A stretch of DNA of 64,000 nt, taken from positions 9,094,070-9,158,069 of the forward strand of contig JBOZIK010000001.1 of assembly GCA_051453625.1 (NCBI GenBank), given 5' to 3'. Each line of letters begins with the position of its first letter. Positions within the stretch are counted from its first letter, which is position 1. Below the pieces are notes generated by a model. It made no database searches. It was not told where the DNA came from and was given only the letters and a program-made list of their open reading frames with translations. Origin of the DNA: Welwitschia mirabilis (taxonomy: Eukaryota). Position numbers and translations under genes: made by a program. This document shows, one piece after another, positions 8,743 through 56,887 of this stretch.

Positions 8743-8830
8743 GGTAGCTGAAATGGTTAAATTAGAATGGTAAAAGAGGAGAGGTCATGGGTTCAGATCT
8801 TGACAATCAAATAAAAACTTCTAAAAAAAG
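8743..8830 (+). mobile_element. tRNA-derived SINE-like head
   Basis: A-box-like TAGCTGAAATGG (8745-8756) and B-box-like GTTCAGATC (8791-8799) about 35 bp apart, followed by an A-rich tract. Confidence 0.4.
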
Positions 8831-29929: not shown

Positions 29930-32900
29930 ATGAGTAATCTTTCTGATGGCCTCTCTATCGGAAGATCACCATGTTTAATGGGACCAACTATGCTTACTAA
30001 AAGGCCCAAATGAGTATCTTTCTTAGATCCTTAGATGTCGACATAAAGGAGGTAATCTACAATGGATACGTTGTGCCCACACTATTCAAAAATAATACTA
30101 ATGAAACCACTATAGTTGTTGAGAACTCTTGAGACCAATGAACCCTTACTAACAAAGATAAGGAAATCTTAGATGTCATGCTCTTAATGCTATTTTTTGT
30201 TTAATTTGTACAAATGAATTCAAGAGGACTGTAAACTATTAACATGCCAAGAAATCTTGGGATATACTTGAAATCATACACAAAGGAACATTCACTATAA
30301 AATAGACAAAGCTATAGATGCATATCTCTAAGTTTAAAGATATTTGTATGGAAGAAGAAGAGAACTGACAAGAGTTTTTTTCTAGACTAACAGACATAGT
30401 AAATTCTATGAAAAGCCTAGGTGAGAAAATAGATAAAGAAAAAGTATTACAAAACATTCTAAGATCTATTCCAAAATGCTTTAAGCCAAAGTTCAGGGCT
30501 GTTGATGAAAGCAAGAACATCAATTGAATGGCATTAGAGGAACTACAAGGTAATCTTCAAACTTATGAGTTAAAGTTTTGTAAAGATAAAAAGAAAAGTC
30601 TTACATTAAAAAGTGTGCAGAAACGGTCCAGATTTGAAAAATCAGATGAAAACCTTAGTGAAGATGAGGTTGCTCTTTTAGCAAGAAGATTCAAAAAGTT
30701 CTTCCATAGAAGAAATGAAGATGATGAACCAAGCAAGGAACCAAATAGAGATCTTTAAAACAAAGAAGAGATCCAGAAAAAGGAAAAGAGATTGGTGCTA
30801 TGCATGTAAGGAATACATACATGTTGTAAATGAATGTCTAAATAATATAAGAGATAAGAGAAAGTCCAAGGCATCGTCCTTCATTGCCATCTGGGATAAT
30901 GTAGATGGAGAAGAAGATAATATCTCAACTCAAGAGTCAAACAGAGATAGAAGACTTTCTTTCATGGTAATAGTCCCTTCCATGAAAAACATGTCATGCT
31001 CAACTAAATTAAATGATCTAAACCTTATTGAAGAAGGTCAAAAAAAGCTAGAAGATACTTGTCAAGAACTCTATTCAGAATGTGAAAAACTAACAAAATG
31101 GATTGACAAATTAAATAAGATTATGAAGGCTCTGAATAAAGAAAATAAAGAGTTGGAGACAAAGTATAGGATGGTTCAAATAGAAAACACTGAGCTAACT
31201 CAAGAGATAAAAATATTGTCTCATTTTGTAAATAAATTTTCAAATAGTTCAAGAAAATTAAAATAGATGTTTGGGATATGAAGACCAGTCCATGATAAGA
31301 AAGGTATTGGCTTTATCTTTAAAAAACCATGTAGTTAATTGAATAAGGAAATATGGCAAAATAACTTAAGTTAAAGATTACCTATCTTTTTTATGGAAAG
31401 ATAAGTAGTTTAAAATTCTTTTGCAATGTTAGAAAGATAATGTGTTTTTCAAGCTGTGTTAGTACTTTTCCATTTAAATTTATCCCAAGGGGGAGTGTAC
31501 CACAACAGTCTAAACAGACTAAGTGGATAAGCATGAATAACAAATGGAACTTGCTAGTACATGGATAGTGGATGTTCTTAGCACATGATAGGTGAAAAAT
31601 CAAGATTCCGACATTTGGATGACTTTGATAGAGGAGAAGTAACTTTTGAAGATAATGAAAAAACAAAAATTGAAGCATTGGAAGCATCATGCCTAAAATT
31701 AATGAAGTTTTATATGTGACTGATCTTAAACATAATTTGCTGAGTATTAGCTAGATTAATAAAGGTTATAAAGTTATTTTTTATAGTAAAAAATGTGAAG
31801 TTAAACACAACAAAACAAATGACGTTCTTCTTAAAGCAAATAGAATAGACAAAGTTTATAGCATTGATCAATCCTTACCTGCTTGTTATTTTTATCATAT
31901 AAATCAAGAAGAATTATAGTAGCAACGATTAGGCTGTGTAAACTATGACCATTTTAAAATCATCATTGAAAAAGGGATTATGAAAAGAATCCCTAAGATC
32001 AATATTGATAAACATGGATTGTGTGATGCTTGTCAAAAAGAAAAACAAGTTAGAACTTCTTATAAAAGTAAAAACTTAGTCTTCTCAACAATGCCACTTA
32101 AACTCATTCACATTGACTTAGTGGATCCTATTTAAACTATAAGTATAGAGGGAAAACGATAGTTTTAACTATGATGGATGGATTTTTTAGATTTAATTGA
32201 ATTGCTTTCTTAGGAAATAAAGCTAAGAGCTTCAACATTTATGTTAAAATCTATAACAAAATCCATAATAAGAAGGAATATGCTATTAAAAAAATTAGAA
32301 GCAATCATGAAGCAGAATTTGAAAATCATCTTTTTGAGAAATATTATGTGGACAATGGTGTATCACATTAGGTTTTAGCCCTAAAGACTCCACAACAAAA
32401 TGGAATTATAGAAATAAAAAATAATCAGATCCTTTAAGAGATGGCAAGAGTGATGCTAAATGATAAGGAAGTATCTAAAATGTTTTGGGCTAAAATAGTA
32501 AGTACTGCATGCTACATTATCAACAGAGTGTATCTAAGACCAGTTATAAATAAAATCCTTTATGAACTTTAGAAAGGAAGAAAGCTAAATGTATCATATT
32601 TTAAGGTCTTTGAAAGTAAATGTTTTATCTTAAAAGATAAAAAACATTTGAGGAAATTTAAGTTCAAAACTAATGAAGTAATTTTTTTAGGATGCTCAAC
32701 TAGAAGTAGCACATACTAGATATTCAATAAATGAAATATAATAGTGGAAAAATTTATAAATATTTAAATAGATAACTTTAATACTAGACTTCTTTCCTCA
32801 TGTGGTGAAAAAAATCCTACTCCAAGTATCTTCACTATAAAATAAATAACAAGTAAAAAAGGATCATCTCAAGAGGTTATATCTAAAAAGTTTAGAGAAC

Positions 32901-34382
32901 TAAAAGATCATCTACTTGAGTCTGTTATTGAAGATGTAAGCTCAAAAATTCACACTAGCAACTTCTTAAAAATTTTTTTACCCACATTGATTATGTTTCT
33001 CAAATTGAACCTAAAAAGTTTAAAGAGGTTGAGCCTCTTGAAGAATCGATAATGACTATGCAATAAGAACTTTAATAATTCAAAAGAAATAATGTTTGGA
33101 AACTAGGAAAAAGACTAAAAGATCAAAATGTAATTAGGACAAAATTGATCTTTAAGAATAATTACAATGAATATAATAATATAACTAAAGATAAGGCTAG
33201 ATTAGTGGCTCTAGATATAACCCAATCAAAGGAATATATGTAGGAGATACATTTACTCCATTGATCAGACTGGATATTATTAGAAAGTTTCTCTCCTATG
33301 TATCTTTTAAAAACATTAAAGGATTTCAGATGGATGTGTAAAGTATGTTTTTAAATGGAACTATTAACAAAGATACTTATGTGGAAAAACTATAAGGTTT
33401 CATAGATCCTCATAAATCACACCATGTTTATAGACATAAAAAGGCTTTATATAACTTAAAATAGGCTCTAAGGATTTGGTATGAAAAACTAGTAACATTT
33501 CTTAAAGAAAATGGTTACACTCATTGAGCTATAGATAAAAATTTGTTTATCAAAAATCTTAAAGAAGACTTTATCATCATTTAAATCTATGTTGATGACA
33601 TAATTTTTGAAGCCTCAAAAGAGGATCTCTTAAAATAATTTGCTAGTATTATGATCACATAATTTAAAATGAGTATGCTTAATGAGGTTTACATGTTTTT
33701 AGATCTATAAAGTGAACAAATAAAACATAGAATTTTTTATCTCTCAATATAAATACTCAAGGGAGTTGATTAAGTAATTTGGACTAGAAAATGCAAAATC
33801 AACTAATACACTTATTTTAACTTCTTATAAGGCCAGTCTAGATCATCATGGAAAATTAAGGGATTAAAAACTTTATAGAAGTATGATAGGAAGTTTATTG
33901 TATTTAACTACTAATAGACCTAACATAGTATTCAGTGTTGTTGTATGTCCAAGATATCAGAATCAACCAAGGAATCCCACCTCCAAGGTGTCAAAAGAAT
34001 TATAAGATATATAAAAAACATAAGTAATTATGGGACATGTATCTTGTAAAAAATTCTTTTGAGCTTATAGGTTTTAGTGATGCAAACTACGTTGGTTTCA
34101 AGGAGGATAAAAAAAGCATCAATGGAAAATATTTTCTTTTAGTATTATTTTGGATAGGATGGACAAGTAAGAAGTAAAATTCTATCTTTTTTTCATAGAA
34201 AAAGTAGAATATATAAGTCCAGGAAATTGTTATATCCATCTTCTATGGATGAAGGAGATACTTAAAGATTTTGAAGTTAATTTTGAATACATCGTAATTT
34301 TTTTTGATAATACTAGTGTAATTAATATTTCAAAAAATTGTGTTCAACATTATTGAATTAAACATATTAAATGAAGATACCA
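29930..34382 (+). pseudogene. Sirevirus gag-pol pseudogene (gag, PR, INT, RT, RNase H)
   Basis: FNGTNYAY*K, LEELQGNLQTYEL, VALLARRFKKF, *YMDSGCS*HMIG (31555-31596), GLCDACQK, TPQQNG, KARLVA, IYVDDIIF; many stops and frameshifts. Confidence 0.93.
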
Positions 34383-34482
34383 NNNNNNNNNNNNNNNNNN
34401 NNNNNNNNNNNNNNNNNNNNNNNNNNNNNNNNNNNNNNNNNNNNNNNNNNNNNNNNNNNNNNNNNNNNNNNNNNNNNNNNNN

Positions 34483-36720
34483 AAAATGAGAAAGGATACA
34501 CTATTAAAAGGATTAGAAGTGATCATGGAGGAGAATTTGAAAATCATATTTTTTTGAAATATTATGTAAACAATGGTATATAACATCAGTTTTTAGCCCC
34601 AGAGACTCCATAAGAAAATGAAATTGTAGAAAGAAAAACCTGAGTCCTTCAAGAAATGGCAAGAACAATGCTAAATGATAAGGAAGTGCCTAAAACATTT
34701 TGACCTGAAGCAGTAAGTACTACATGATACATTATTAACGGAGTCTATCTAAGACCAGGTATAGATAAAACCCCTTATAAACTTTGAAAAGGAAGAAAAT
34801 CAAATGTATCATATTTCAAGATCCTTGGAAGTAAATGTTTTGCCTTAAAAGATAGAAAACATTTGAGTAAATTTGAGTCTAAAGCTAATGAAGTAATCTT
34901 CTTAGGATACTTAACTAGAAGTAGAGCCTACTGAGTTTCAACAAATGAAGTCTAATAATAGAATAATCCATAAACATTCAAGTAGATGACTTTAGTATCA
35001 GGCTTCTTTCCTCAAGTGGTGAAGAAAATCTTATTTCAAGTATCTTCATAGTAAAAGAAGCAACAACTAAAATAGAAGAAGAGCCATATCAAAAGGCTAC
35101 CTCTAAAAAGTTCACAGAGCTAAAAGATCACCCACTTGAGTATATTATTGGAGATGTAAGCTTAAAACTTTGTACTAGAAACTCTCTCAAAAATTTTTAT
35201 GCCCACATTTGTTATGTTTCTCAAGTTAAACCTAAAAAGTTTAAAGAGGCTGAATCTATTGAAGAATGGATGATGGCTATGCAAGAAGAACTTCAACAAT
35301 TCAGAAGAAATGATGTTTGAAAACTTTTAGAAAGACCAAAACATCGAAATACAATTAGAACAAAATGGATCTTTAAGAATAAGTGTGATGAATACAACAA
35401 TGTGATTAAAAACAAGACAAGATTAATGGCTCAAGGATACAACCAAATCAAATAAATAGATGTAGAAGACACATTTGCTTCAGTGGCTAGACTAGATAGT
35501 ATTAGAATGTTTCTATCTTATGCATCCTTCAAGAATATCAAAGTTTTTCAAATAGATGTGAAAAGTGCCTTTTTAAATGGAAATCTCAATGAAGAAGTTT
35601 ATGTGAAACAACCACAAGGTTTCATAGATTCATACAAACTAAACCATGTCTTTAGACTCAAAAAGGATTTGTATGGTTTAAAACAAGCTCTAAGGGCTTG
35701 GTATGAAAAATTAGCAACATATTTTAAAGAAAATGGTTACAGCCATAGAGCTATGGATAAAACTCTATTTGTCAAAAATCTTAAAGAAGACTTTATCACC
35801 ATTTAACTATATGTTGATGACATAATTTTTGAAGCCTCAAAATAATATCTCTTAGAAGAATTTGTTAGCATTATGATCATGTATTTTTAAATGAGTATGC
35901 TTGGTGAAGTTTGCATGTTTCTTAGTCTTTAAATTAAACAAACAAAATAGGGATTTTCATCTCTCAATCCAAATACTCAAGGGAATTGATTAAGTGATTT
36001 GGACTATAAAATACAAAATCAACTAACAGATCTATGTCAACTTCATGTAAGGTTAATCTTGATGATCATGGAAAATCTATGAGCCAAAGACTTTATAGGA
36101 GTATGATAAGAAGTCTATTGTATTTAATTGTGAGTAGACATAACATAATACTTAATGTTATTGTATGTGCAAGATATCAGAATCAACCAAAGGAATTACA
36201 CCTCCAAGTTGTGAAAAGGATCATAAGATATATAAAAGGCATGAGTGACTATGGGCTATGGTATCCTATAGAAACTTCCTTTGAGCTTATAGGTTTTAGT
36301 GATGCAGACTAGGCTAGATGTAAAGATGATTGAAAAAGAACCAATGGAAATTGTTTTCTTCTAGGATCATGTTTGGTAGGATGGGTAAGTAAGAAGCAAA
36401 ATTATCTCTCTCTTTTCATAGCAGAAGTAGAATATATAGCTATAGAGAGTTGTTGTACCCATATTCTATAGATGAAGGAAATGCTCAAAAATTTTGGAGT
36501 TAATTTTGAATAGTTTCCAATATCTTATAATAATACTAGCGTAATTACTATCTCAAAAAACCCTATTCAACATTCTCAAACTAAATGTTGTAAACTAAGA
36601 CACCATTTCCTTAGAGATCAAGTAGAAAAAGTTAACATTTCTATGAACTTTGTAAGCACTGATAGATAACTAGCTAATAAATTTAATAATTTTTGAGACT
36701 TCATCATAAATTAGAATTTG
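34483..36720 (+). pseudogene. Second copy of Sirevirus INT(core)-RT-RNase H
   Basis: IKRIRSDHGGEFEN, ARLDSIRMFL..FQIDVKSAFLNG..LYGLKQALRAWYE, YVDDIIF, LIGFSDAD, KNPIQHSQTK; colinear with 32267-34382. Confidence 0.93.
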
Positions 36721-37102: not shown

Positions 37103-38215
37103 ATGAGTTGTCAAGTAACAAAGGGTCCCTCTAGAAGAGCTCGATGGAAGGAGCTTGCAAGCAAAGATCTTGGATATTTTTACTCTAGAATGTCAGATAA
37201 AGCCCTCGATAAGTTTAGTGCAAAGTTTAAAAAAAATCCTATCTATTAGGAGAGGTCAATAGCTTCAAGGAAACTTAGAGAACTTAGGAATGTAATGAGA
37301 CTCCTCAATGATCTCACGTCCATGATCGATCAAGACGTATATGATAATATGGTGTAGCAACTTAATGCATATGGTATCTCTCTTATTTTCTTAAGGTTTT
37401 TAGGTATACCTATTCTTTTCTTACTTGCATGTTCTACTTTAATGCTTCTTTCAATCCAAACTCCTCTATCCTTATGACTCTTGTGTTGGGGAAAATAATT
37501 CGAGTAATTGCAAATTGAATAGAATCCCTTATAAATATTCTTAGAGAATATTATAAGGAATTTTGGACCTTGAATGATTTTATGGAATACAAGACAGAAA
37601 TCACTAAAGAATTCTATGGAAACTCAATCGGTGGAAAACTACCCTTTCCACCTTCCATCTTACTCTAAAATATCATTTTCTTTATTTAGTTTTTACTTAC
37701 AATTTTTTACCTCTTGCTGATCATCGTGATGAGACCTCAAACTATCATGCTTATTTGTTGTACTTGGTAGGAATTCATCACTCCATTGATGCTCCTACCA
37801 TTATTCTTAAGAATATTGTCTCTTAGTTAGAATATCATAAAACTAGGGATTTTCCTTACTCCATCCTAATTGCAAATATATGTCATCATTTTAGGGTCTA
37901 AATGCATCCCAAACATGAACCTTAACTCCTATCTACCATTGGATGTGCTACTCTGTCTGCATGTATATTTTTTCTGGATCTAAGAAATATTCAAAGTTTT
38001 TACCTCTAAAGTGCCCCCTCCCCCCTAAAAAGACTCTATCATACCTCAAGAGGCTAGATTCTTGAACTTGGCATATGACAGAGGCACTCATTGTAACAGG
38101 ATACAAGATTGCAGATACGTCTGAGGAAGTTAGTAGCTCTGTAAAAAAGGTAGAAGAAGAAGAAGATGATGATGACCTAGATTCTAAAGAGGAGGAAGAA
38201 GAAGAATCTAATTAA
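37103..38215 (+). pseudogene. Sirevirus env-like extra ORF (plant transposon protein / Transposase_32-like domain), degenerate
   Basis: Lies between RNase H and the PPT region; FSAKFKKNPIY*ERSI, VYDNMV*QLNA, YNFLPLADHRDETSNYHAYLLY..IDAPTIILKNI, FPYSILIANICHHFRV and an acidic C-terminus. Confidence 0.75.
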
Positions 38216-38309
38216 TTGTGTTTGCTTTCTTAGTTGTTATGGTTGTTTTGTTTTTTTATTAGTACTTTCCTTTTTCTCTCCTTTGTTATTGATTACTACA
38301 AGAAATATA

Positions 38310-38600
38310 GGCTTTTAAGGCGTTTTTAAAATGCTTTAAAAGGCCATAAAAAATTCCTTAAGATGTTTTAAGGCATTTCTTCACAAAACGCTTTAAAAAG
38401 CATCACCTTAAAAGCCCACAACCTGTTAAGACATTTCGAAGGTGTTTGAATAAAAATGCCTTAAACAAGTCTTTTAAGGCCTTTGTTTTGTAAAATGCCG
38501 CCAAAAGATTTTGAGGCATTTATCTAATAAAATGCCTTAAAAAGGATAACATTTTGAGGCATTTTATTAGATAAACACCTCAAAAGCTATAACTTTTGAA
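38310..38600. repeat. CACTA left subterminal repeats
   Basis: Many direct and inverted copies of TTTTAAGGCRTTT / AAATGCCTTAAAA. Confidence 0.9.
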
Positions 38601-39797
38601 AAAAAAAAAAGATTACTACAGAATGGTTAAAAAATGTTGCCTTCAAAATTGACAATCTAGGCTCCCACTTGTGTTCTTGCTTACCCTTTCAATTTCAAAT
38701 TCTATCCTTTCTCTGCGAAGGGCCTAATTACATGGTTAAATAGAGACATTTGGCTCCAATAAAAGCAAGATCATTGTAAAAAATGGCTTTACAATCTATA
38801 AATCATAATGGACTTGCCCTCTTATTATAGGCTCTCAAAATAGGTTAGTAGCTTTTTGCAATCACACATTCATCATGGGGATTATCCCCCTTATTTAAGT
38901 CTCTATATTCTATTAACATTTCACAATTATTACTGAGGTGATTATTAAGAAAATGCATTGTTTTGTCCATGTTGTACAGCCATTTAAGTTTGGGACTTTA
39001 TTGTTATTATATTTCTCTTTCTTTTATTACATTTTGATATATCTTGAGCTTATTATTATATCCTGTATCCCTTAAAACCTTTCCTTTTCTTATATTTACA
39101 TAAATTGTTCTCATTACTCTCTTTGATTACTATTTTCCCTATTGAGAATAGAGAGAGAAGGGTTTTGTATCTTATTGGGTTATTCTTTGAGTTTATTTAG
39201 CTTTCTTATGATATGTTGCTCTCGGCAGATAATCAAGATGATGAAGATTACTTCCTTTAGCCAGACATTTTCAAATCAGAAAGGAAATATAGCTTATTCA
39301 CCTTTTTAGAAAAGAAAAGATTAGCTAGTTGTTACAACCTATTCTAACTGGGGCTAAAGGCTCTAGAAATTCATCCTAAGATCATTTGCAATTGCTGTTT
39401 TCTTTTCCAAGTTGTCACTTGACCTCTGCTCCTCTCCCATAATATTTAACCCCTTCTTATATTTATATCTATTAAAATGTGTCAAATTTTTTCCTCTTAG
39501 GTCTTGTGTCTATGAGTCTCTACAGATTTGATAGTACATTGTTCTATCATTGTCCATATTTGACTATAAGAAACTTAAGATTTAACCTTCAATAATTTAT
39601 AAGATAGATATAATTTTTAGTTTGTTAAAAATTCTTGGTTGTAGTGCCAGCCCTTTTAAGTTGACATCATGAAGACAAACGGATAAAGCAAACATGCAAT
39701 TGATGATACTTACCAAGAAGCTAATTATTTAAAGAATTGAGTGAATCTTTAATGTTTCTTAATTATTTCAAAATGATAATGAATATCACACACTAAC

Positions 39798-41217
39798 CTT
39801 CTAAAGTGTGCTGAACCAAAAATAGTAGCTAAAGTTTTTAAGTTAGTTTTCTTCATTAGATGCATAGCTTCTTCAGCATTCCAAACTATCTCATATTCAT
39901 AGTTTAAACTCTCATCCTTTTATTTGGTATTTTCTTGTGAATTGGATTCTATTAATGATGAATAAGAGCTATTTTACTTTACAAAACTAATAAGAGACAT
40001 CCACACCATTTGTAGCCCACAAAGTAAGAACCACTCAAGTTATAGAAATAATCTTGCATACCTGTAAAATAGAAAATAGATTTACAAAGATCAATTGCAT
40101 AGTAGTGCTAAATCTTCAACATTTGAAATGTGATTTTCCAATAAAAAAGTAAGAGATTACCATAAATATATGTGTGTTTGATAAGGAAGAAAGTACAACT
40201 AGGATGAAAACATTACGTCTTGACTAGATTTCTTTGAAGATGAACTTACAGGTAACAATAAAAAGGATGGGTATAGATTTCCCTGTTGCTAGCTAAAGCT
40301 TCCAACAATGTGTTGACATTAATTAAACATAATTAACTAATAAGTAAATAGGAAAAGAAAACTTGACTAATATCAAGGAAGAAATATGAGGTGGNNNNNN
40401 NNNNNNNNNNNNNNNNNNNNNNNNNNNNNNNNNNNNNNNNNNNNNNNNNNNNNNNNNNNNNNNNNNNNNNNNNNNNNNNNNNNNNNNNNNNNNNTGATAA
40501 AAGACATCCACACCATTTGTAGGACAGAAAGTAAGAATAACACAACTTATAAGAAACAAGCTTGCATGCCTGTGAAATAGAAAATGGATTTACAAACATT
40601 AATTACACATTAGTGCTTAATATTTAACATTCAAAATGGGGTTTGCCAATACAAAAACTAAGAGATTACCATAAATATATGTGTGTTTGATAAGGAAGAA
40701 AGCACAAATAGAATGAAAACATTCCATCTTGACTAGATTCCTCTAAAGATGAACTTAAAGACAATAATAAAAAGGATGGGTATAAATTTCCCTATTACCA
40801 GCTGAAGGTTCCAACAGTGTGTTGAAATTGATTAAACATAATTAACTGATAAGTAGATAGGAAAAGAAAGCTTGACTAATATCAAGGGAGAAATATGTAG
40901 TGGTCCTGAGCATTACCTCAATAACTTGTCCACTTAATACATGATGAAACACTGTGCATTATCATGATCATGTCCATAGAGGACTAAAATCTATCAATTT
41001 TCACCAATTGAATTTAATTGAAATGTTAACAGATTAATGCATAGAAAGCAAAAAAAAACATTAGATTCTAAATATAGATCAATTGATATTATTGAGTAAT
41101 TTGTAACAAAATTTATGGGGAATGAACCAGAATTTACAAACTAAAGCTATCTTACATATAGGGTTAAGGAGATTCAGTAACTATTCTGAGGTCTTCTCAG
41201 TTAAGAAGTTCTAATAC
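39798..41217 (-). pseudogene. Captured multi-exon fragment of a Cdc1/MPPE1(PGAP5)-like metallophosphoesterase gene
   Basis: Exons: 41217-41160 (Y*NFLTEKTSE*LLNLLNP), 40990-40917 (ILVLYGHDHD-CTVFHHVLSGQVIE), 40821-40670 and duplicate 40312-40161 (HTVGTFSW..GNLYPSFLLLS..LCFLPYQTHIYLW), 40569-gap and 40061-39798 (YARLF..WATNGV..KDESLNYEYEIVWNAEEAMHLMKK); mostly GT-AG boundaries in compatible phase. Confidence 0.88.
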
Positions 41218-41616
41218 CTATATATGTCCAAAAAAAATTGAAGAAAGCATGTGATTGCTAATGTGGTCCATTTGTTAAAATGGTGTAGCTTTTATAGGAA
41301 GAATATTTGTCATTACTAGAAATATCTTTGTTTAATTTTAACTAATATGATATAGCTTTTATAGGAAGAATATGAAATCTTTAAAAGAAAATTGACAAAA
41401 TAGTGTTAACAGGGGATATATCATTATTTCTTTTTATATCAAAGGATGACTTTACATTTAGAGATAGTAACATTTTCAATAACTCAAGTGTTATCAAGGT
41501 CTTTACTAGATTAATATCCTTTTCACTCTCAGAGAAGCATAAGAGGGTGAACTATCGCATTTGATGATATAGTAACTTGCATTTTTTTTTTTTTTTTTTT
41601 TTTGTGGGCATGTGAA

Positions 41617-42300
41617 GGAAAATAAGGAAGAGGAGAACTGATGTTATTATGGCTCAACTCCAGGAAGGACAACAAGTTTAACTGAACTAGTGTAGGAGGC
41701 CCTTTATCATGAAGCTAATTACTAGCTAAATTCAAGAGATGAGGAAATAGTTCCATTGAGGGCTCGACTAGGCAAATTGATTATGGACACCTTGCTATCA
41801 GCATTGGATCTAATGCCCATTCAATTCTCATAGTGACTATTACTAGTTTAAGACGATCCCATTGGACTTGATTAATTCATAATAGTAAGGAAATCCAAGA
41901 GTGAAGAAACCTCTAGACCATAAGGAAAGCTCTATTTTAATTAGCAAAAGAAATTAACAAGTGAAAATAAATAGTTCTAAAATAGGGATTTCAAAACATG
42001 TTGTACCTCATTAGCTAAAACAGACTTAACACTAATTTTTTGTTGTTCTTGGATATTTTTTTCCCATATGCTTTCTTATGGCCTTAGAGATGGTTGCAAA
42101 TGAATAGTTTCATGGTATGCCATGTGCAATGAGTTCTGCTGGACTCAATGAATTCCCACACTTATTGAGTATGCTACATCTACTAAGTCTGGTGAGCCCA
42201 ATACCACCAAACTCATCTCTTTGACTTCCAGTGTTCAACCTCACCATAAGCTAGAGTTACCTAGACTAGTAACAAGTTTGGTCAATTTGACAACACTGTG
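41617..42300 (-). pseudogene. TMK: Captured fragment of a TMK-type LRR receptor-like kinase ectodomain
   Basis: LEVSSLLDFLTIMN...*MGIRSNADSKVSIINLPSRALNGTISSSL...GPPTLVQLNLLSFLELSHNNISSPLPYF (41916-41617) matches the TMK island plus final LRRs; weaker LRR-like sequence continues to about 42300. Confidence 0.8.
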
Positions 42301-42770
42301 ACATATAAATATTCTAATTGGCAACATCATATTCATTAGATAAAATTCCTAATGATAGTGATGAGAATAATGAATTTGTAAAAGAAAATTTCTAAACAGC
42401 ATTACCTTACCTAATTGCCTTTACATCTATACTTTTAACACTTAGGAATTTAGGATAATAATTTTTAAAAAGGTTTTAAAATGAGTTTAAATTTAACAAA
42501 GCCATATGAAGGGGTGAAAACATTTAGATAGTTTTAATTTAGAAAATCATATTTTTGAAATGTCTTTGATACAGTAATTAATGTTTTATGTTAAGAACTC
42601 TATACTTCTCTAGATTCATATTTTACATTTAAATAGAATTTGGACAATTAACAAAAAAGAAAAATATCTAAAGTGAGACAATCCATGGATGAACATTTGA
42701 ATAATTTTTAAAGCATAGGTGTATAATAACACCATACAAAAATATTTATGGGAACTGATTAAAGGCATAC

Positions 42771-42889
42771 CTTCTATTTGTGTAATAGGCTCTACACCAT
42801 TGAGCACACATCCATATTGCTTAACTAATGATACAAGATTATTAATGATGGCCTTAGCAATATCATATATTTTGCTTACAAGAAGACCC
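42771..42889 (-). pseudogene. TRE1: Captured single exon of trehalase (GH37)
   Basis: CAG|GLLVSKIYDIAKAIINNLVSLVKQYGCVLNG-RAYYTNR|GTATG; canonical splice sites, one 1-bp deletion. Confidence 0.9.
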
Positions 42890-43349
42890 CTGCATAAATT
42901 GAATGTNNNNNNNNNNGTTAAAATTAGAAAACAGACTTAAAAAGTATGAAGGCCTCACCAACTGTAAAAACTGATAGAACAATGAAATTATCAAAAGGCT
43001 TGTAGAAACTGAAAGGTTTATTGGCTATAAGATAATTCTAAATATCCAACTTAACAAAAGCCAATTTAAAAATAAAAAAATTTTTTCTCAGTTTTTTGGT
43101 ATTTATGGTTGTTTACGTATTTCAAATTTGGAAATAGAACTAAAGATTGCATCTGAAACAGCTTGATTGGAACTAAGGTGATCTCAGCAATGATTTCCAA
43201 AAAAAAATAATATATGTAGAGAAAAAGATATGGTGGAGTAATTCATGCTTATTAACATTTCTTCAGTTAAGACCTGCTTCCATTACATCCATGTTTCTTT
43301 AAACGGATTTCTTTTCTTTCTGCTTTTGACTTCTGTGTATCGTGCTTTT

Positions 43350-43500
43350 AGTGCTTTGTCAAATATCGAATTCATACTATACATTGGGCACAAAGTTCCC
43401 TTTGGAATCATAAGTATAGCATCCATGTACTAGGCTTAATGATATGAGTGGAAGCATCATAATCTGGAATATTCAACCATAGACCATGAGAAACAATACT
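43350..43500 (-). pseudogene. RGP: Captured fragment of RGP / UDP-arabinopyranose mutase
   Basis: [21 protein letters not shown]...YMDAILMIPKGTLCPMYSMNSIFDKAL versus conserved [48 protein letters not shown]. Confidence 0.92.
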
Positions 43501-44227
43501 ACTAAAAGCACATTTATATAATATAGATGGATTTCTTGCACTACATTGAAGTAGTTCAGGCTGAAACTTCATGAGAAAAAATAATGAGCTACAACTAGAA
43601 TCAATCTATTTGGAATTTTCTTATCCTTCAGAAAGCTATGGCTGATGATTCGGCTTAAAGTAGGAAGTGAGTATGTAGTGAGAAGTTCTCTAAGGTGTCA
43701 AATGGCCTTCACTTTATTCACAAGAATATCAAGGAGAGGAAAAAGCTCTTTAATCTAAAGTGCAAACTGGTTTGAAAACCAGAGAATAGGCCTTAGTCCC
43801 TTCTTATAATTGGTCATGCTTGTCCCGTTGCTATATGTCAATGATAGTAGTGGAACTCCACCACAATATTCATTGTCACTTTCATTCTCATTTAAATTTC
43901 TGCAAGTTGTAGTCAAATCTTATGACATCGCCACCTAGTGAATCCTTTAATCTAATCCACTTTCTACTATCCATGGACCTTTGTCTACTCTTTAGTGGTG
44001 ATGAAATCATCCCTTGATTACTTGAAAAATGTGGGGAGATGTAAACTATGAAGGCCATAGTAGAAATTGTAGTAATTGTATGTTAAAAGATGTTTCCCAC
44101 AATAGTGCTCAAACTCTTTTTTCTAGAAACATACAATCCATCTATAACAATTGCTTTCATTCCACATGTAGGATCATAGTTAGATGCATCAATGAGATTT
44201 CTCTATTTCTAGGAACATATAGTCCTG

Positions 44228-44500
44228 TTAATTGAGCTTCTCTCTTCTTTTTCTTTCAGCCTTGACGTGGTTAAGGGGTTCCTCTCTTCCATTTGTAGGC
44301 TTTCTTCCTCTTTTTCTGGGACTTCTTTCTTAAACAACAGCAGCAGATCTCTTGTTGTCCTAGCAAGAATCTTCATTGTTCGAGTGCTCATTAGGCTTTA
44401 CGACATATGGACTTGAAGTAATAACAGAACTAATTAAAGGGCCAATAAAGGGAGGCCAAAATGCATGAGTAGAATATGGTTAATTTGGTCTGATATCAGT
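44228..44500 (-). pseudogene. Captured fragment of a JAM/MYC2-type bHLH transcription factor (subgroup IIId/e)
   Basis: [51 protein letters not shown] versus conserved [32 protein letters not shown]; core at 44329-44228. Confidence 0.92.
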
Positions 44501-46649
44501 ACAGTCGCAAGTTCTTTATATTAAGGAGTCTAAGCAGAAAATGAGTGGAATATGATCAGTTTTGTCTTTCCAAGCGCAACTTTTGTTTGATTAAAAGAAT
44601 GAAAGGTTTTTCATATTTGGATAGAGAACTCAAACTAGAGGAAAAAATAAGGGACTATATTTAAAGTTCTTATGCAAGATCCTCCTAAATTTTCACATTT
44701 ACTAACTAATAAGGTCTTTTAGAATGACATGGACTTTGCTATGTTCTTATGTTAAAAAAATTATGCTTATCACTAAAGGCTAATGAACAAATCAGTAATG
44801 ATAGACACACACAAAATGTAAGGCCTTATGAATGCCATAGCAAAGAAGGCATTAAGAGATGTATGCACAGTAAATTATTATTGAGGAAATATTCTTTATT
44901 GGATTTTCGTAATCCATGAAAGCTTTGTTTGAAAGGATTTTGGCTTGTTTCTCTTACTTTTACTATCAACATGTTTGGATACATTACAAGAGAGTGAATA
45001 TACAACGTATAAGAGGAAAATGCAAAGATACACTAGAAATAAAGATAAAGGATCTAGATTCTAAGAGATGAATCAAAACAAAAGCAATTTAAGTGACTAA
45101 AACAAGAGGAAAAAAATATAAAACTAAAAAGGAAGCATAAAAACTTAAAAAGTATAGAAAAGAGGCTTAAAATAAAGAAATCCAAAAGAGAAAATCATCA
45201 TGAACTGCATTAAAATCAATTTTTAGTATGACATCTCCAATTAGTAGATCACTTTATTTAGTTGGTAAAGAAAATGTAGTGTGCAAATTCTTCTTGATGG
45301 TCGTTATCTACTTTTATTCTAATAATGTTTCTAGTATTACTCTACATAAACATGCATTGAACATTGGAATTCTTTCTATAGTTTTCTAAGAACTCCTTCA
45401 TGTTACTTGTTTAGTAGTGGAAGAGTTACTAATGCTTGATCTCATATAGAGCTCAAGTTCATAGACATATTTTAGTTTTAAGAAATCCCTTGGCCTAAAG
45501 ATAAAACTTTCATATATCGATTATGAGTAATGAGCTACACCTGAGGCTATAAAGCTAAGCAAGAATCTTCCTAGCTAAGAACCAATGAATAATATCTATG
45601 CCATTGGCTAAAAATTGAATTATAAAGATTTAAAACTATTGCATGAGTTGTGTATTCAAGGATATGATAAAGAAGTACTTTTAATTGACTTAATTTATAA
45701 GAATCTATTTAAAATTATCACAAAACCACCTAAATTCTAATATCCATATATGGACTACAAAAAGTTCATGAAATATTATAAACATAATAGCATGTAAGTG
45801 ATGTCATTCTAGTTTCTAGATGAGTAACTACAAAACTATTTAACAAAGATACCACTTCTAAATCAGAGTCTGCCGAACAAAGAGGAGTTTGTTCCACTAT
45901 TTAACAAAGATAGATTTCACAAATATATCTATCTGATTTCATCAAAGTTTGGGAGACAAAGATACCACTTTTGTATCAAGATCTATTGAACAAACATCCA
46001 CCAACATGGAAATATTAATTGATAAGTTATTTTAGAGGAAAAGGAAATGATGAAATGAAAGAAGAAAGTATACACTTGGATATCTTTATTAAACCTTGTC
46101 CGAAATTTGTTAGTAATGCTATCTAAGGATTAATACCTAAAGTATCAACTAGTCTTCTCTTACATTTATTATTATTGTTATTGTTGTTTATGGTGTTGGC
46201 TATGAAACATTCAAATGAAATGGATTTATAGTTGGAGCATATTGAGAATGATGGAAAAGGGATTGATCTCTGAAGGAAGAGGCCTATAAAATTAGAGAGA
46301 AAATGGCTCCTCCTGAGGACGTACTCTGCTTACAACTTCAAACATATTGACCATGGTAAAAGCACTAAAATCTGTCTTGTGGATTAATTAACTTTTACAA
46401 AACTAGTGCTTGGATAGTATTTTAAATATTCTACAGTATCAGATTTGACATATATTTATGTGTGTTGGGTTTCACATGCAATCATCATTGTTTCAAAGAG
46501 GAGTTTCATGAATTTTGCTTTTTTAACAAACCCTAAATGAAATAAATGTAGGCGAAAAAATATCTTTTCATGTGTGGTGTATTTTTAGAAAAAATGTGCG
46601 AGGGTTTTATTTTTAGCAATGCACACGTGGTTTTTTTTTTCGGGAAATA

Positions 46650-46920
46650 AACCTAGCTTTTAAGGAATTTCTTTGGTTAAGCACCTTAAAAAATCATTGC
46701 TTTTAAGGCATTTATTTGGTTAAGAGCCTTAAAAGTCCATTTACATTTAAGATATTGATTTATAAAAGCCTTAAAAACATCTAACATGGGCTTTTAAGGC
46801 ATTTATTTTAAAAAATACCTTAAAAAGTTTTTTTTTTTAACACAAAGCATTTAGTAAAATCTGCACCTTAAAAAACCCTATAATTAAGGTGTTTATTTAA
46901 ATAAATGCATTAAAAGCCTC
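46650..46920. repeat. CACTA right subterminal repeats
   Basis: Repeated CTTTTAAGGCATTT / CCTTAAAA units in both orientations. Confidence 0.9.
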
Positions 46921-48434
46921 TATTCTTGTAGTGGATGCCAAAAGAGGGAGAAATAGAGTCTATAAATTATTTATAGTCAATTGTTATTATAAGTTGTTAT
47001 CATATATCAGTTGTTATCACATGTCACTTGTTATTGTCAATTATTTTCACATGAGTATCTTTCAGATGTATTATGTAAAACTGGATAATAGAAATAAATT
47101 CTATATCATTTTTCTTATCTATTAATGGATAATATATTTTCCATAAACTATGCTTTTAATTTTTTTATGGCTCTCTTTGGAAAACCATTATGAATTCTTG
47201 ATCTGGATACACATGGTCAATAATATTTCATAAATGTGAACAGGTACTTTTTAAGAGGGAGTTTTCGAATTAAAATTTTTAAATAAGTATAGTTTGTCAT
47301 CAATGTCGAAGGGAAAGATTGTTAAGTTATATTTTTGCCAAGTTGGTCTCAAACTAACATTTTTTGATATAGCAAAATATGTTGTATTTCTTGTAGAAAA
47401 TATTAATCATTGTAGGTTAGAATTAATCCATATTTTTCACTATCTAAGCTTGAACTTGATAAGTAATCTCTCAAGGGGTCAATTAGATTCCTAAGGAGTT
47501 AACTAGACTTGTGCAAAAAATTATCAAATATTTTNNNNNNNNNNNNNNNNNNNNNNNNNNNNNNNNNNNNNNNNNNNNNNNNNNNNNNNNNNNNNNNNNN
47601 NNNNNNNNNNNNNNNNNNNNNNNNNNNNNNNNNNNNNNNNNNNNNNNNNNNNNNNNNNNNNNNNNNNNNNNNNNNNNNNNNNNNNNNNNNNNNNNNNNNN
47701 NNNNNNNNNNNNNNNNNNNNNNNNNNNNNNNNNNNNNNNNNNNNNNNNNNNNNNNNNNNNNNNNNNNNNNNNNNNNNNNNNNNNNNNNNNNNNNNNNNNN
47801 NNNNNNNNNNNNNNNNNNNNNNNNNNNNNNNNNNNNNNNNNNNNNNNNNNNNNNNNNNNNNNTCATTTGTAAAACCCAAAATATATCTTATATATAAACC
47901 ACATCCATCAAAATCATAAAATACTTTTTAATTAAGCAAAATAGAAAAAATATCCTTTCATGATTAGTTCTTTGGTTAATTAGGTTGCACTATATGTACT
48001 TGAATTTATGACATCATTTTTAGATAGTGTAGTACTATCTTTGTTGTACTTCAGATCTAGTGAAGCTTGTTCATTATGGCATAATATTAATACCAAAAAG
48101 CATTTCTTTAAAGGTTGATACTAAGCCTCCAAAAGTTCAATTATAAAGATTATGGGTTAACCTAAGAAACCTAGAAAGTAATTAACTAAAATCCAAGTTA
48201 TCCTTGGGTAGAAGCTGGTTACTAAGAGTGGAGTAGGGGATTTTCCAAACCACTGTAAATCTTGTATCTATCAATCTCTATCAATATTTTCTAGTTTTAG
48301 TTATTTCTATTTTTAGATTATTTTGTTATTTTGTATGCACAAATATTTTTATAGTATTTAATATTTTGTGAAGATAGGTTTTCAATTTATTTTTAATCTT
48401 ATTCACCCCTTTCTCTAGGGTTCTCGATCCAATA

Positions 48435-51862: not shown

Positions 51863-54800
51863 TTAAAGCCCTCTATAGAATGGAAAAATGTTACTATGAT
51901 TATGGTCAAGAAGGAATATGTCCAAATCATTAGAGAGAACATCAAATGCTTAATTTATCTCCTTAAATTCTTCGAAATCTGCTGGATTTTTATCTGGATG
52001 TAGTCGTAGGGCTTTCTTCTTGTAGCTCGATTTAATGGCCTAAGGGAGGGCTCTATGAGAGAGTTCCAATGTGATGAAGGAATATCTCTTCAGCCCCTAA
52101 ATGGTTTCTATCAAAACCTCCCATCTAGCAGCATTTATTTCAATGTCCTCCTATGGTTGAAGTTGGATTTAGACTGATGAAGAATCTGAAGTGGAGTTCT
52201 ATGAAGAGCTAGGGCCCGAGGCTAGAGTAGAGGAGGTCTGGGCATGCCTACCTCACTCTTGAGAGTTTGGTGATAGTTAATCCTGAGTTAATTCTTGGGC
52301 TATGCTAGAGTTAGACTCCTCAGCTATCTTTTATTGGATCAGGGTCGAAGACATCTCCCCTGAATGACCTGGGGGTGAAGTCATCCCTCTCTTGCTAGGT
52401 CTGCCATGTGCAATGGTTTCCTCTAGAATAGGATTTCTTTTAGAAGAGGTTCTTATTTTAGAGGTTCTCCTAGGGGGAGTCTAGTGAGGATGACAATGGG
52501 GGGAGGGAAAGGGGCTCCTCTTGCCCTAATTTCTTGTGCTGCTCTCCAAAGGGCCAGGACTAAGACCAAGTACCTTAAGGAATCCTTCCATTTAAAAACT
52601 TTAATAAAAGAGAATGGCAAGTTCACCTAACATCCTAATTCAAGAGCTTTAAAAAAAGCAAAATAAATACCTGAAAGCTTAGAGAAATTCCCCAATTGGA
52701 TGAAGTAATGGTTCACGACTTCTGTACCAAGTCCCCAAGGGGATGGTAATGCCTTTCTGCTAATGTGCTAGCTTGGCAATTTAGGAACCCCATTAGGGAA
52801 GAAGTGAAGTGCTTCATTTTGTCTTCTACTTCTAAATGGAATCTGTTCTCCTTCTTTAGGGATTTCCATTAGCCTAGAGAGGGAGTCTTTGGTGATTTCT
52901 ATTAGAATTCTTTAGAAAGTGGTGTCTCCTCCTTTCCATCTTCTATAAAATGGAATGATATCAGCCCCTAGGTCTCCTCTAAGATTAAGCAGAAGGAGTT
53001 CCCATCCCACCACATACACTTTATCCCATAGAGCAAGGCATCCTTTGAAGAGGCCTAGGTTAGAAGGCTCAATTGTTGGCATGGCTCCCATCACGACTTT
53101 GATTTAGAAGTAAAGGTACATGATCCTCCTTTTTGTATTTATAGGAAAGGATGGGGAGCTTTATTAAAAATCAGATTATTTCTAATCCACCAAATCTGCC
53201 AAAATATTAAGTGGATCCTATTTAATAAATGCATATTAGGGGCATTACAGGTTTGATAGTACTTTGTTATAATGAAGATTAATTCTTTGCTTTAAAAGCA
53301 GTGATGAAATAGATGTTGTGCTATTTCTAGATTGGACTGGCAGATGGGATAATTTAAGTCCACTTGGGATACCCTTTTGAGCAATTCATCTTTAGTTAAA
53401 ATTCTCTGATGGTCTTTAACTAGAAAAAAACCTTAATTTTTTCTAGAATCTGTCACTTCCAATACTTCTTATATGTATTCTCTTTTCCATATTTCTTTAG
53501 TAGGATCTGCTTAGTTGAATCAGACTGAGAAATGTTTAAGTTAATAAGATGTTGTAAAGCTTTACTAAGGTGTTTCCTTAGGTAGAAATCCTTATGATCA
53601 ATGGTCTAATATCTGTATTTGTAATTGATTAAATCACACTAGGGATGACCTCCTTTTTGCAATCTCTTTAAAATTCTATGTGCTCTAGTAAGGATGCAAT
53701 CTTATGGTTTCTGAATCCCCAAATCCTCTGATTCTCTTGGGTGGGCAATAATCTCTCATTTGTAGAGATGAATTCGGCAGTAATTCTTTCCTCTTAACTA
53801 AATAAAATCTTTTAAGATCCTATTGATTTTTTGAATNNNNNNNNNNNNNNNNNNNNNNNNNNNNNNNNNNNNNNNNNNNNNNNNNNNNNNNNNNNNNNNN
53901 NNNNNNNNNNNNNNNNNNNNNNNNNNNNNNNNNNNNNNNNNNNNNNNNNNNNNNNNNNNNNNNNNNNNNNNNNNNNNNNNNNNNNNNNNNNNNNNNNNNN
54001 NNNNNNNNNNNNNNNNNNNNNNNNNNNNNNNNNNNNNNNNNNNNNNNNNNNNNNNNNNNNNNNNNNNNNNNNNNNNNNNNNNNNNNNNNNNNNNNNNNNN
54101 NNNNNNNNNNNNNNNNNNNNNNNNNNNNNNNNNNNNNNNNNNNNNNNNNNNNNNNNNNNNNNNNNNNNNNNNNNNNNNNNNNNNNNNNNNNNNNNNNNNN
54201 NNNNNNNNNNNNNNNNNNNNNNNNNNNNNNNNNNNNNNNNNNNNNNNNNNNNNNNNNNNNNNNNNNNNNNNNNNNNNNNNNNNNNNNNNNNNNNNNNNNN
54301 NNNNNNNNNNNNNNNNNNNNNNNNNNNNNNNNNNNNNNNNNNNNNNNNNNNNNNNNNNNNNNNNNNNNNNNNNNNNNNNNNNNNNNNNNNNNNNNNNNNN
54401 NNNNNNNNNNNNNNNNNNNNNNNNNNNNNNNNNNNNNNNNNNNNNNNNNNNNNNNNNNNNNNNNNNNNNNNNNNNNNNNNNNNNNNNNNNNNNNNNNNNN
54501 NNNNNNNNNNNNNNNNNNNNNNNNNNNNNNCAAGGACATAAGCTATGTACCGAGAAGAGGAAATTAATCAAGAGTTTATAAGAACAATTGTAGCTTTGGA
54601 TGAAAGAAAGTTATTTTTCCATGAGTTGCACCACCTTTGGATGGATTCCAAGATGTAATTCCAGGAATTGGTATTATGTCAATTTTAAAGAGGCATATCC
54701 AAGTAGATATCCTATAGGTCTCCTAATTTTGTACTCAGAATTCGGGTAATTTCTACCCCTCTAATACGTTTTCTACCAAAAATATGGATTATCGATTTTT

Positions 54801-56887
54801 TTCAATTATTATGTAACATATGTTCATAGCATTTTTTAATTAATTTTTCTTGCTGATATGATGCCCTGATCATGATGATAGTGTCATTTGCATAATGATT
54901 GTTGAAAAAGGTTTAGCCTCCAATTTTAATTCCTGTAACTCTGTTCCTTCTTAGAAAAACCTATAATACATTCATCACAAAAATAAAAAGGTATGAGGAT
55001 AGGGGGGGCCCCTTGTCTCAAGCGTCTATCTATTGAGAAGCAATTTGATCTATGGTTGTTGACCTCCATACTAAATTCGATGGAAACCTGCATGTCTAGC
55101 TAAAGATTAATAATATCTTTAGAAAATCTTATTTTCTTAAGAATACATCCTAAAACTTGTTAACTAACTAAACCATAAGCTTTAGTGTTTTCCAATTTAG
55201 CAATAAAGAGAGGAAATTTGTATTTTTAAATAGAGTGCATGATCTCATGAGTCAAGAGGATTTGGTCTTGGATATACCTAGATCAAATGAAGGCGGCTAG
55301 GTTCTCTGAAATCACATTGGAAAGAAGGGGGGTAATACAACCAACCATGATTTTTGCAAAAATTACATAAATAATATTATAAACACTTAGAGGCCTGAAA
55401 TCTTTTGGTTTACTAGCATCCATTTTTTTTGGTATAAGTACCACCCTAATTCTATTCATTTTCCTAAGAATCTTTCTATTGTGAAAGACTTCCTGCATTA
55501 CATCGTGAAGGTTATCCCTTAAGATGGAGAAGTAGGATTTGAAAAATTCAACCTGTCAGCCATCAAGATTAGGCATTTAATTATTCTTCATGGATCTGAC
55601 AGCAGATAAGATCTCTTTTTTACTCAGAGGTTTAAACAACATATAGTTATCTTCACTTGAAACTTTCTTATTTTTTGGAATTAAATCAGGGGAGATATCG
55701 TTTCATTCCCTGATTTTTTTTAAGATGGACCTGCAATTCCTTAGCTATATCTTCTTCATTTTCTGTAATTTGACCTCCTATGGATAGTCTTCTAATCTTG
55801 TTATCTAATCTATGCTAGTTGGCCTACTAGAATAAGAATATAGTACATTTATCACTCTCTTTAAGTCATTTGATCCTTGATTATTCTCTACAGTAATGTT
55901 CTTCATCAATGTTTATTTCTTAGAGATCCATTAGGCATTGATATTCTCTGTTCTATAGACTGTCCTAGTTACCTCCCTTCTTCTGCTCTGTTTGGATTCT
56001 TTTAATTTCTTCCTCAAGCTCGGTTTTTTATTTAAACCTCTTTTTAGCTTTCCTTCTCCAATCTCTTATGTGAGCCTTTAGGGTATTAAGGTCCCTATAC
56101 AAAAAATTTATGGATTGAGTTCCATCATACTGTGCCCATATTTTTTCCAATAGCACTCTAGTTTCTGTTTGGTTAATCCAATACTATTTCATATGAAATG
56201 GAGTTTTCTAGGGCAAAATCATCCCCACTCTAAGTTTGATAGGATGTTGATTTGAAGCAATTCTATTCAGACCATAAGCTTCAAATAAAAGTTTAGCTAG
56301 ATCCTTCCTAGCCAAAACTCTGTCAATATTGGACATTATCACATCTCTACCTACTCTTTTATTCGATCACATGTACTTACATCCAAAAATAGGGATGTCT
56401 ATGAGGGAGTGTCTTGCCAAAAAATCTTTTAGTATTGAGCTACCTCTAGAATTCCAGTTATCACCTTCTGATTTTTGCAATGATGAAGACATTGATTGAA
56501 GTCACCCAAGATGAGCCATTTAGATTTATCTACTATTGTCCTCTGAGCTTCTTCCAAGATAAAGGCCTTGTTTTGATTATGTTGGGAACTATAAAGATTC
56601 ATGATATCTAGCCTTCTTTTTTAAGGAGAACTATGATGTGGTTCTTGCTAGTGTGAATCAGATCTACCTCTCTTTTGGTAGAAATCATAATGCCACTAGA
56701 GTTGCCTTGGGCTGTAATGATGAAGGAAATCCATTACTACTCTAAATTCATTTTTCCCATATCATTTTTGGTCTTTGTTTCCTGTAAGCAAATTAAATCA
56801 ATATTATACTAACTGATCATATTTCATAGGGTTTTTTTCCTTATAGGAGAACCCTAATTTTCTACAATTCCATATGAGATAATTTAT
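51863..56887 (-). pseudogene. LINE ORF2 (APE endonuclease, RT, C-terminal region) plus 3' extension
   Basis: NYLIWNCRKLG, LICLQETK, WLILGDFNQ, LIPKKMDASKPKDFRPLSVYNIIY, LRQGAPLSSYLF, HYANDT, IFWQIWWIRNNLIFN (53165-53210); decayed TAATG overlap (TAATA) at 56889-56885. Frame continuity into the extension is inferred. Confidence 0.85.
51902..52084 (-). pseudogene. DnaJ/Hsp40 J-domain inside the LINE
   Basis: Single frame YSFITLELSHRALP*AIKSSYKKKALRLHPDKNPADFEEFKEIN*AFDVLSNDLDIFLLDH; HPD at 52000-51992; all four helices fit the J-domain consensus. Confidence 0.92.

Follow-up and report, generated by a model that had tools for sequence, protein, structure and literature searches.

In a 64,000-nt window of Welwitschia mirabilis DNA (assembly GCA_051453625.1, contig JBOZIK010000001.1:9,094,070-9,158,069), we analyzed a candidate transposable element of 8.6 kb that occupies window positions 38294-46933. 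A preliminary description of the window had read it as a Pack-CACTA element, bounded by CACTA termini, a GAT target site duplication (TSD), and subterminal repeats, and filled with fragments of at least five unrelated host genes. The window is AT-rich and plant-like in composition (~30% G+C) and contains 3,540 N distributed over 12 runs (for example, 3989-4773, 40395-40494, and 53837-54530). Two of the runs, 40395-40494 (100 N) and 42907-42916 (10 N), lie inside the element and make its true length uncertain. The features that delimit it are as follows.

38291-38293: left copy of the TSD, GAT, read from the sequence
38294-38325, plus strand: 5' terminal inverted repeat, beginning TACTACAAGAA, the same as the other end in 27 of 32 columns
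38294-38610, plus strand: 5' subterminal repeat region, with GCCTTAAAA / TTTTAAGGC units in both orientations and an A12 run at its end
46620-46933, minus strand: 3' subterminal repeat region, recognized by repeat families, end alignment, and contig depth
46902-46933, minus strand: 3' terminal inverted repeat, its reverse complement beginning CACTACAAGAATAG, the same as the other end in 27 of 32 columns
46934-46936: right copy of the TSD, GAT, read from the sequence

The two ends face each other in inverted orientation. The 3' end begins with CACTA, and the 5' end reads TACTA, with T rather than C at base 1. When at most one mismatch is allowed, the terminal 11-mer has only two sites in the 64 kb, namely TACTACAAGAA at 38294 on the plus strand and CACTACAAGAA at 46923-46933 on the minus strand. 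Subterminal arrays of ~315 bp lie symmetrically at the two ends, each closing with an A run, and 13 of the 18 CCTTAAAA sites of the window fall within 38313-38535 and 46658-46866. A CACTACAA inside the element, at 39639 (minus strand), was not accepted as a terminus but attributed to chance, there being four such 8-mers in the window and no subterminal repeats adjoining this one. No further copy of the element or of its flanks was found elsewhere within the 64-kb window. Termini, TSD, and subterminal arrays are the cis features by which a CACTA (En/Spm) element is defined, and all the boundary features named in the preliminary description were seen, the 5' end with a C>T change at its first base. 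The ends and the TSD could in principle be coincidental, with ordinary decayed genic DNA lying between two unrelated CACTA ends, and the terminal 11-mer taken alone does occur at chance frequency. Against this stand the correct inverted orientation, the GAT flanks (P = 0.024 for a 3-bp flank match by chance at the base composition of the window), and the symmetric ~315-bp arrays with their A runs; moreover, a mosaic of five genes whose parents are expressed elsewhere is unlike a decayed gene cluster. We consider coincidence extremely improbable. The inverted ends, matching GAT, and symmetric arrays likewise disfavor the circumstance named beforehand as refuting the element, that its ends belong to two separate elements around decayed DNA.

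The region was scanned with Pfam as stop-to-stop open reading frames (ORFs) of at least 24 amino acids and free of N, 108 on the minus strand and 96 on the plus strand. No transposase family was found among these 204 ORFs of both strands, a set that excludes N-containing ORFs and to which the 100-N gap was invisible. Minus-strand matches comprised the reversibly glycosylated polypeptide (RGP) family (two members) and four noise-level families, and the eight families matched on the plus strand were all noise (E 0.039-0.089). No Rfam family was found in 37500-47500. As had been stated earlier, there is no recognizable transposase among these N-free ORFs, and the element is non-autonomous.

Five gene fragments were identified in the interior, all five of them on the minus strand and together within ~4.7 kb (39798-44500).

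44228-44500, minus strand: MYC2-type basic helix-loop-helix (bHLH) fragment, its firm part, 44231-44329, being the basic region and the start of helix 1
43350-43495, minus strand: RGP fragment (Pfam PF03214) with a frameshift near 43433
42771-42889, minus strand: single trehalase exon with intact AG/GT borders (cag, gta), a 1-nt frameshift, and intron DNA on both sides
41617-42300, minus strand: LRR receptor-type ectodomain fragment, decayed and interrupted by several frameshifts and stops, TMK-like only by non-significant matches
39798-41237, minus strand: fragment spanning several exons of a conserved plant protein that bears a GHDHD motif; it has in-frame stops and a frameshift
~41217-41156, 40990-40917, and 40830-40669, minus strand: exons of the GHDHD-protein fragment
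40571-40496 and possibly 39919-39798, minus strand: further exons of the GHDHD-protein fragment
40315-40160 (of 40830-40669) and 40061-39985 (of 40571-40496), minus strand: exon duplicates
39990-40903: tandem duplication of ~509 bp with the 100-N gap between its halves

Raw reads from two RNA runs bearing the same species label (X14 and X17, about one quarter of each run) were mapped on 37800-47400, with reads less than 92% alike excluded. This placed 158 reads of X14 and 95 of X17, of which 151 and 88, respectively, lay only partly on the stretch; 102 and 76 were 90-95% alike, and a single read per run was at least 99% alike. The reads pile up on exons and run into unlike sequence at 44227, 43495, 41217/41158, and 41391/41359. 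Among the differences listed, which give lower bounds, at least 8 are fixed in 44251-44332, at least 5 in 43440-43480, and at least 3 in 41183-41213, roughly 5-8%. The likeness of 90-95%, the fixed differences, and the different continuations together argue that the reads derive from expressed parent genes and not from the element. By this sequence comparison, the parent genes appear to lie elsewhere and to be expressed; the element itself was not detectably expressed in the two RNA samples.

The bHLH piece 44231-44329 matched MYC2 (PDB 5gnj) with 18 of 20 residues identical (E 2.3e-5). Its capture breakpoint lies at 44227/44228, where 42 reads of X14 and 17 of X17 pass 44227 with unlike sequence, and by eye their continuation extends the bHLH helix. 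Two matches to PF03214, separated by the frameshift, support the RGP fragment: 43411-43605 (minus strand; E 1.2e-5, 25.1 bits, curated cut-off 23.8) and 43286-43429 (minus strand; E 3.1e-3, 17.2 bits, under the 23.8-bit cut-off). Reads from the RGP parent stop at 43495 and 43433, and the edge at 43495 may be either an intron border or a breakpoint. The trehalase exon was matched by Pfam PF01204 over 42619-42906 (minus strand; E 9.2e-7, 28.5 bits, cut-off 21). The JAM/MYC bHLH, RGP/UAM, and trehalase assignments proposed for the minus strand are therefore supported by these three matches.

The LRR fragment was named at two levels, of which one held. A 61-residue piece, 41532-41714 (minus strand), matched 42 LRR proteins in the PDB, the best being a polygalacturonase inhibitor (E 8.9e-5), and on this predicted protein similarity 41617-42300 reads as an LRR receptor-type fragment. 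The TMK assignment, by contrast, was not established: TMK1 ranked 32 of 42 for the same piece (E 0.039), and TMK3 was the best PDB match of a 32-residue piece, 41725-41820, at a non-significant E of 1.3. The TMK assignment goes back to the layout of such proteins. PDB searches with 42113-42250 and 41784-41876 (both minus strand) found nothing, and a homologous-protein search with 41532-41714 (minus strand) found none, although its threshold of 0.01 was overly strict for a piece this short.

For the fifth fragment, the conserved family is clearer than its name. We searched the translation of 40741-40875 (minus strand; query P0001, its two stops read as X) against 1.84 billion representatives and obtained 16 proteins at E up to 0.001. 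Nine of the 16 match in a single stretch at 55-74% identity; they are short plant gene calls in which the matched exon follows the GHDHD motif, and only one relative among the nine carries a name, the NCBI record 'uncharacterized protein ..., partial [Humulus lupulus]'. The seven multi-stretch matches were set aside: four that were inspected (P0002, P0003, P0005, and P0013) proved to be tandem-repeat proteins summing weak matches, and P0004, P0006, and P0015 were set aside without inspection. Local tblastn of the nine relatives and one cluster member against the window located this exon twice, at 40830-40669 and at 40315-40160 (E 1e-9 to 4e-12). It also put the GHDHD exon, which carries a frameshift, at 40990-40908 and an exon farther upstream at 41237-41124 (E 0.06). 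Pfam returned nothing relevant for five plant relatives of the 40830-40669 exon or for the fragments themselves; a PDB search with P0017 gave no meaningful match. An earlier homologous-protein search found none for P0001, and none for 39752-39919 (minus strand) at the threshold of 0.01, again too strict for short pieces. The Atlas lead for the GHDHD fragment was a metallophosphoesterase cluster with a score of only 0.75, all Atlas leads scoring below 0.8. The donor of 39798-41237 was probably a metallophosphoesterase. The exons described as Cdc1/MPPE1-like do belong to a conserved plant family with GHDHD matched by tblastn, but the family name was not confirmed; no tool named it, and the label goes back to the region of that family's last metal-binding motif.

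Parent reads are loose-ended at 41158 and 41217, and by eye their continuation at 41158 enters the GHDHD exon; these two edges are splice borders of exons kept with their introns in the element. The acceptor has been lost before 40830 and before its duplicate, with CAA where the relatives predict CAG. The halves of the tandem duplication, 39990-40394 and 40497-40903, are 86% identical over 407 bp, and the 100-N gap between them makes the structure of the duplication uncertain. Two smaller features lie between this fragment and the LRR block.

41582-41603, minus strand: run of A22, directly downstream of the LRR fragment, at a cargo-block junction
41359-41391: short RNA-matched stretch, its likeness reaching ~41420 by eye, with reads diverging on both sides

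The A22 run may be filler, a retroposed piece, or a SINE tail. At the RNA-matched stretch, loose read ends occur at 41359 and 41391 in both RNA runs, with 8 and 11 reads at 41378, and 41359-41391 may represent a sixth donor, perhaps a 3' untranslated region. A 31-nt direct repeat (41276-41306 / 41343-41373) flanks the stretch. At 46491-46560, five X17 reads match inward from 46491 and are unlike the sequence before it, and this may be a further transcript-derived piece adjoining the 3' subterminal region.

Taken as a whole, the five donors are distinct, unrelated families that lie where the preliminary description had placed them, all on one strand. Most exon borders keep AG/GT, bearing out the many intact splice sites reported earlier, and every fragment carries stops or frameshifts. 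Because introns are retained, capture took place at the level of genomic DNA, and an origin of the cargo from spliced RNA is ruled out. The shared orientation had been taken to suggest either orientation-biased capture or a once-spliced chimeric transcript, and a functional or formerly functional chimeric gene would accord with five of five fragments on the minus strand, with the AG/GT kept at most borders, and with the soybean element Tgm-Express1, whose fragments are spliced as cassette exons (PMC1947982). Yet five fragments would share one orientation by chance with a two-sided probability of 1/16, which is not significant and does not by itself require a directional mechanism; orientation-biased capture is unsupported. 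A chimeric gene is further opposed by the stops or frameshifts in every fragment, by the loss of at least one acceptor (CAG to CAA before 40830 and its duplicate), and by the lack of promoter evidence. No chimeric transcript was seen in X14 or X17, where all reads except the one per run at 99% or above came from the parents. We judge a chimeric gene or an orientation-biased capture to be very unlikely, although the cargo could be spliced if it were transcribed, by analogy with Tgm-Express1.

The same reads give the direction of decay. Among the differing places, the window has A/T against G/C in the RNA at 35 of 60 (X14) and 39 of 62 (X17), with the reverse at 6 and 4. Such an excess of C>T/G>A is as expected for a methylated, silenced copy, and we infer silencing by methylation. 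Both the CAA/CAG>TAA/TAG stops in the exon 40830-40669 and the altered first base (C>T) of the 5' terminus agree with this excess.

DNA contigs from two sources, X1 (organism A) and X5 (organism B), were placed on 37800-47400. In X1, the summed depth, which is not a copy number, was ~2.4-5 on unique pieces and ~3000-8800 on the end regions (~3300-4800 at 38294-38610 and ~3000-8800 at 46620-46933). Flanks varied, with 40 contigs just outside 38295 and 18 beyond the 3' end, and joints such as 38325>46792 represent short members without cargo. These contigs indicate hundreds of family termini. Along the cargo, X1 depth was ~100-213 in 40368-41009, with up to 16 distinct contigs at places in 40712-40822. 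The trehalase region had a depth of ~98 and 7-10 contigs, the LRR region ~45-52 and 5 contigs. The RGP and bHLH exons stood at ~8, and no variant contigs fell on them (variant depth 0). These differences suggest that the metallophosphoesterase-like, trehalase, and LRR parts are multi-copy and the RGP-bHLH block single-copy, and that the older cargo parts are common to sister elements while the RGP-bHLH block is private or rare. Organism B (X5) yielded interior pieces with 0 differences, for example 43662-43979 and 41105-41313. No junction-spanning or empty-site piece was found among the pieces listed, and the joint 38293>46937 was absent from the 15 joints listed out of 243.

The uneven depth and contig number along the cargo fit stepwise capture. 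The serial capture proposed earlier is plausible. Alternatively, all five fragments could have come in one capture from a pre-existing mosaic locus, for example, another Pack-type element or a Helitron. Their confinement to ~4.7 kb (39798-44500) in the same orientation and the similar differences from their parents (~5-8% among those listed) would fit such an event. The order-of-magnitude spread in contig depth and number among the cargo parts speaks against it, as it suggests that the family shares only some of them, and stepwise capture is the documented pattern in multi-fragment Helitrons (PMC3288121). We regard a single capture as unlikely.

One internal feature bears on how the element was assembled.

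38611-38627, plus strand: internal GAT followed by the terminus-like TACTACAGAATGG, directly behind the 5' module and its A12 run

TACTACAGAATGG is the same as the family terminus except for one missing base. TACTACAG occurs once in the element, and GAT was recorded at three places, 38291, 38611, and 46934. By our own estimate, the chance of a repeated 10-mer (GAT plus the first 7 bases) inside the element is ~0.02 or less. The relic may simply have been carried along from an earlier locus. It could also mark a composite of two neighboring family members, in which a solo 5' module (38294-38610), left by aberrant excision, abuts a second element (38614-46933) that owns the GAT/GAT pair; the outer ends would then delimit a hybrid unit, as in the tandem-insertion model of Pack-CACTA elements, and such a hybrid may resemble the intermediate of the Arabidopsis model. 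The third GAT (38611) in front of a terminus match with one base lost, at that low chance, favors a composite, as does the report from Arabidopsis of closely spaced direct insertions and of a 264-bp 5' fragment with TSD after aberrant excision (PMC6379663). On the other hand, no subterminal repeat array lies beyond 38614, so an element starting there would be without 5' binding sites; the composite requires insertion precisely into a 3-bp TSD; and the boundary at 38614 had no contig support among the matches listed. On this evidence, we hold a composite origin to be unlikely. A related proposal, tentative and to our minds improbable, is that the relic is a natural footprint of cargo capture by closely spaced direct insertions and aberrant excision, with the co-orientation of the fragments reflecting directional capture. 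If true, the relic would exemplify a capture route so far watched only in Arabidopsis epigenetic lines. The relic is the sole feature of the element that a specialist might follow up.

From the termini, TSD, subterminal repeats, lack of a recognizable transposase, and five unrelated donors, we conclude, in line with the Pack-CACTA reading of the preliminary description, that 38294-46933 is very probably one decayed, non-autonomous Pack-type CACTA (En/Spm) transposon carrying gene fragments. Several points weigh against this conclusion. The terminal 11-mer by itself is at chance level (1.78 expected in the window), and the summed contig depth is no count of copies. Two of the five family names (TMK and Cdc1/MPPE1) are without confirmation, no source was identified for ~3.2 kb of the interior (38628-39750 and 44501-46620), and a 100-N gap lies inside the element. 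The GAT and terminus relic at 38611-38627 leaves room for a composite origin. Finally, mobility of this copy is deduced from the TSD only.

En/Spm ends and subterminal repeats are bound by transposase and cleaved. Such a Pack-type transposon would have kept only the cis parts needed for movement, its terminal inverted repeats and ~315 bp of subterminal repeats at each end. An autonomous member of the family would have provided the transposase that binds and cleaves these sites in trans. The interior of the element was filled with genomic DNA, exons together with introns, copied from at least five unrelated host genes. Acquisition would have been stepwise, by tandem insertion and aberrant excision or by template switching during gap repair. 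The element would then have inserted into transposon-rich DNA, creating the GAT duplication. Later silencing would have been followed by decay through C>T/G>A changes, stops, frameshifts, the 509-bp internal tandem duplication, and the change of the first base at the 5' end.

A close published counterpart is Tgm-Express1, a 5.7-kb CACTA element of soybean that resides in the wp allele of flavanone 3-hydroxylase; its cargo, exonic and intronic pieces derived from five unrelated host genes, is spliced in the form of cassette exons (PMC1947982). Both elements are non-autonomous CACTA elements with exon and intron pieces of five donors and with usable splice sites retained. Unlike Tgm-Express1, which lies in a gene intron, the 8.6-kb Welwitschia element sits in transposon-rich DNA and is visibly decayed; its cargo is of bHLH, RGP, trehalase, LRR, and metallophosphoesterase-like origin, and no chimeric transcripts appeared in X14 or X17. 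In Arabidopsis, Pack-CACTA elements that have CACTACAA termini and a 3-bp TSD were observed moving, and the model of direct insertions at close spacing combined with aberrant excision arose from this (PMC6379663); in maize they carry the most distinct loci among Pack-TYPE elements (PMC8903248). The Welwitschia element shares with both the CACTACAA-type termini, the 3-bp TSD, the lack of a transposase, and genic DNA from several loci. It differs in that the mobility of the Arabidopsis elements was followed in real time, whereas here it is deduced, and in its internal TSD and terminus relic, which the accounts cited here (PMC6379663, PMC8903248) do not describe in an intact element. Captured gene fragments in CACTA elements are also described in Chenopodium (PMC8978399), and stepwise capture is documented in maize Helitrons (PMC3288121). 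Pack-MULEs and gene-carrying Helitrons resemble the present element in that they transduplicate pieces of genes, in many cases taken stepwise from several donors (PMC3288121, PMC1947982), but they fall into other superfamilies and differ in termini, TSD length, and transposition chemistry. A five-fragment cargo, spliceable cargo, and stepwise capture are already in the published record (PMC1947982, PMC8903248, PMC3288121), and the known picture is unchanged. The Welwitschia element provides a clean, clearly bounded instance in which a CACTA element has shuffled fragments of genes from at least five donors, and it can serve as a test case for models of capture. It also matters for annotation, where its fragments might be recorded in error as pseudogenes of bHLH, RGP, trehalase, receptor-kinase, or phosphoesterase genes.

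The insertion site consists of transposon debris. A degenerate Ty1/copia element lies just upstream (30500-36300, plus strand); among 63 flank ORFs, its Pfam matches were RVT_2 (E 5.9e-30), gag_pre-integrs, rve, and SH3_retrovirus, in ORFs broken by stops and N runs. A weak match to Transposase_32, a putative plant transposon protein, lies at 37608-37823 (E 0.0015, under the cut-off), ~470 bp left of the insertion. One flank ORF each of the 63, outside the element, matched TMF_DNA_bd (E 3.1e-6) and PigN (E 6.9e-4), and these may be further gene fragments or chance. The ORFs 2680-2949 (plus strand) and 55286-55555 (minus strand) have the look of LINE-type reverse transcriptase by eye; Pfam found no LINE-type reverse transcriptase family among the 63 flank ORFs, these two included. 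A 219-bp repeat with 82% identity occurs at 47320-47534 and 28743-28961, and the right flank of the element is itself repetitive in the genome (contig depth ~1100-1800).

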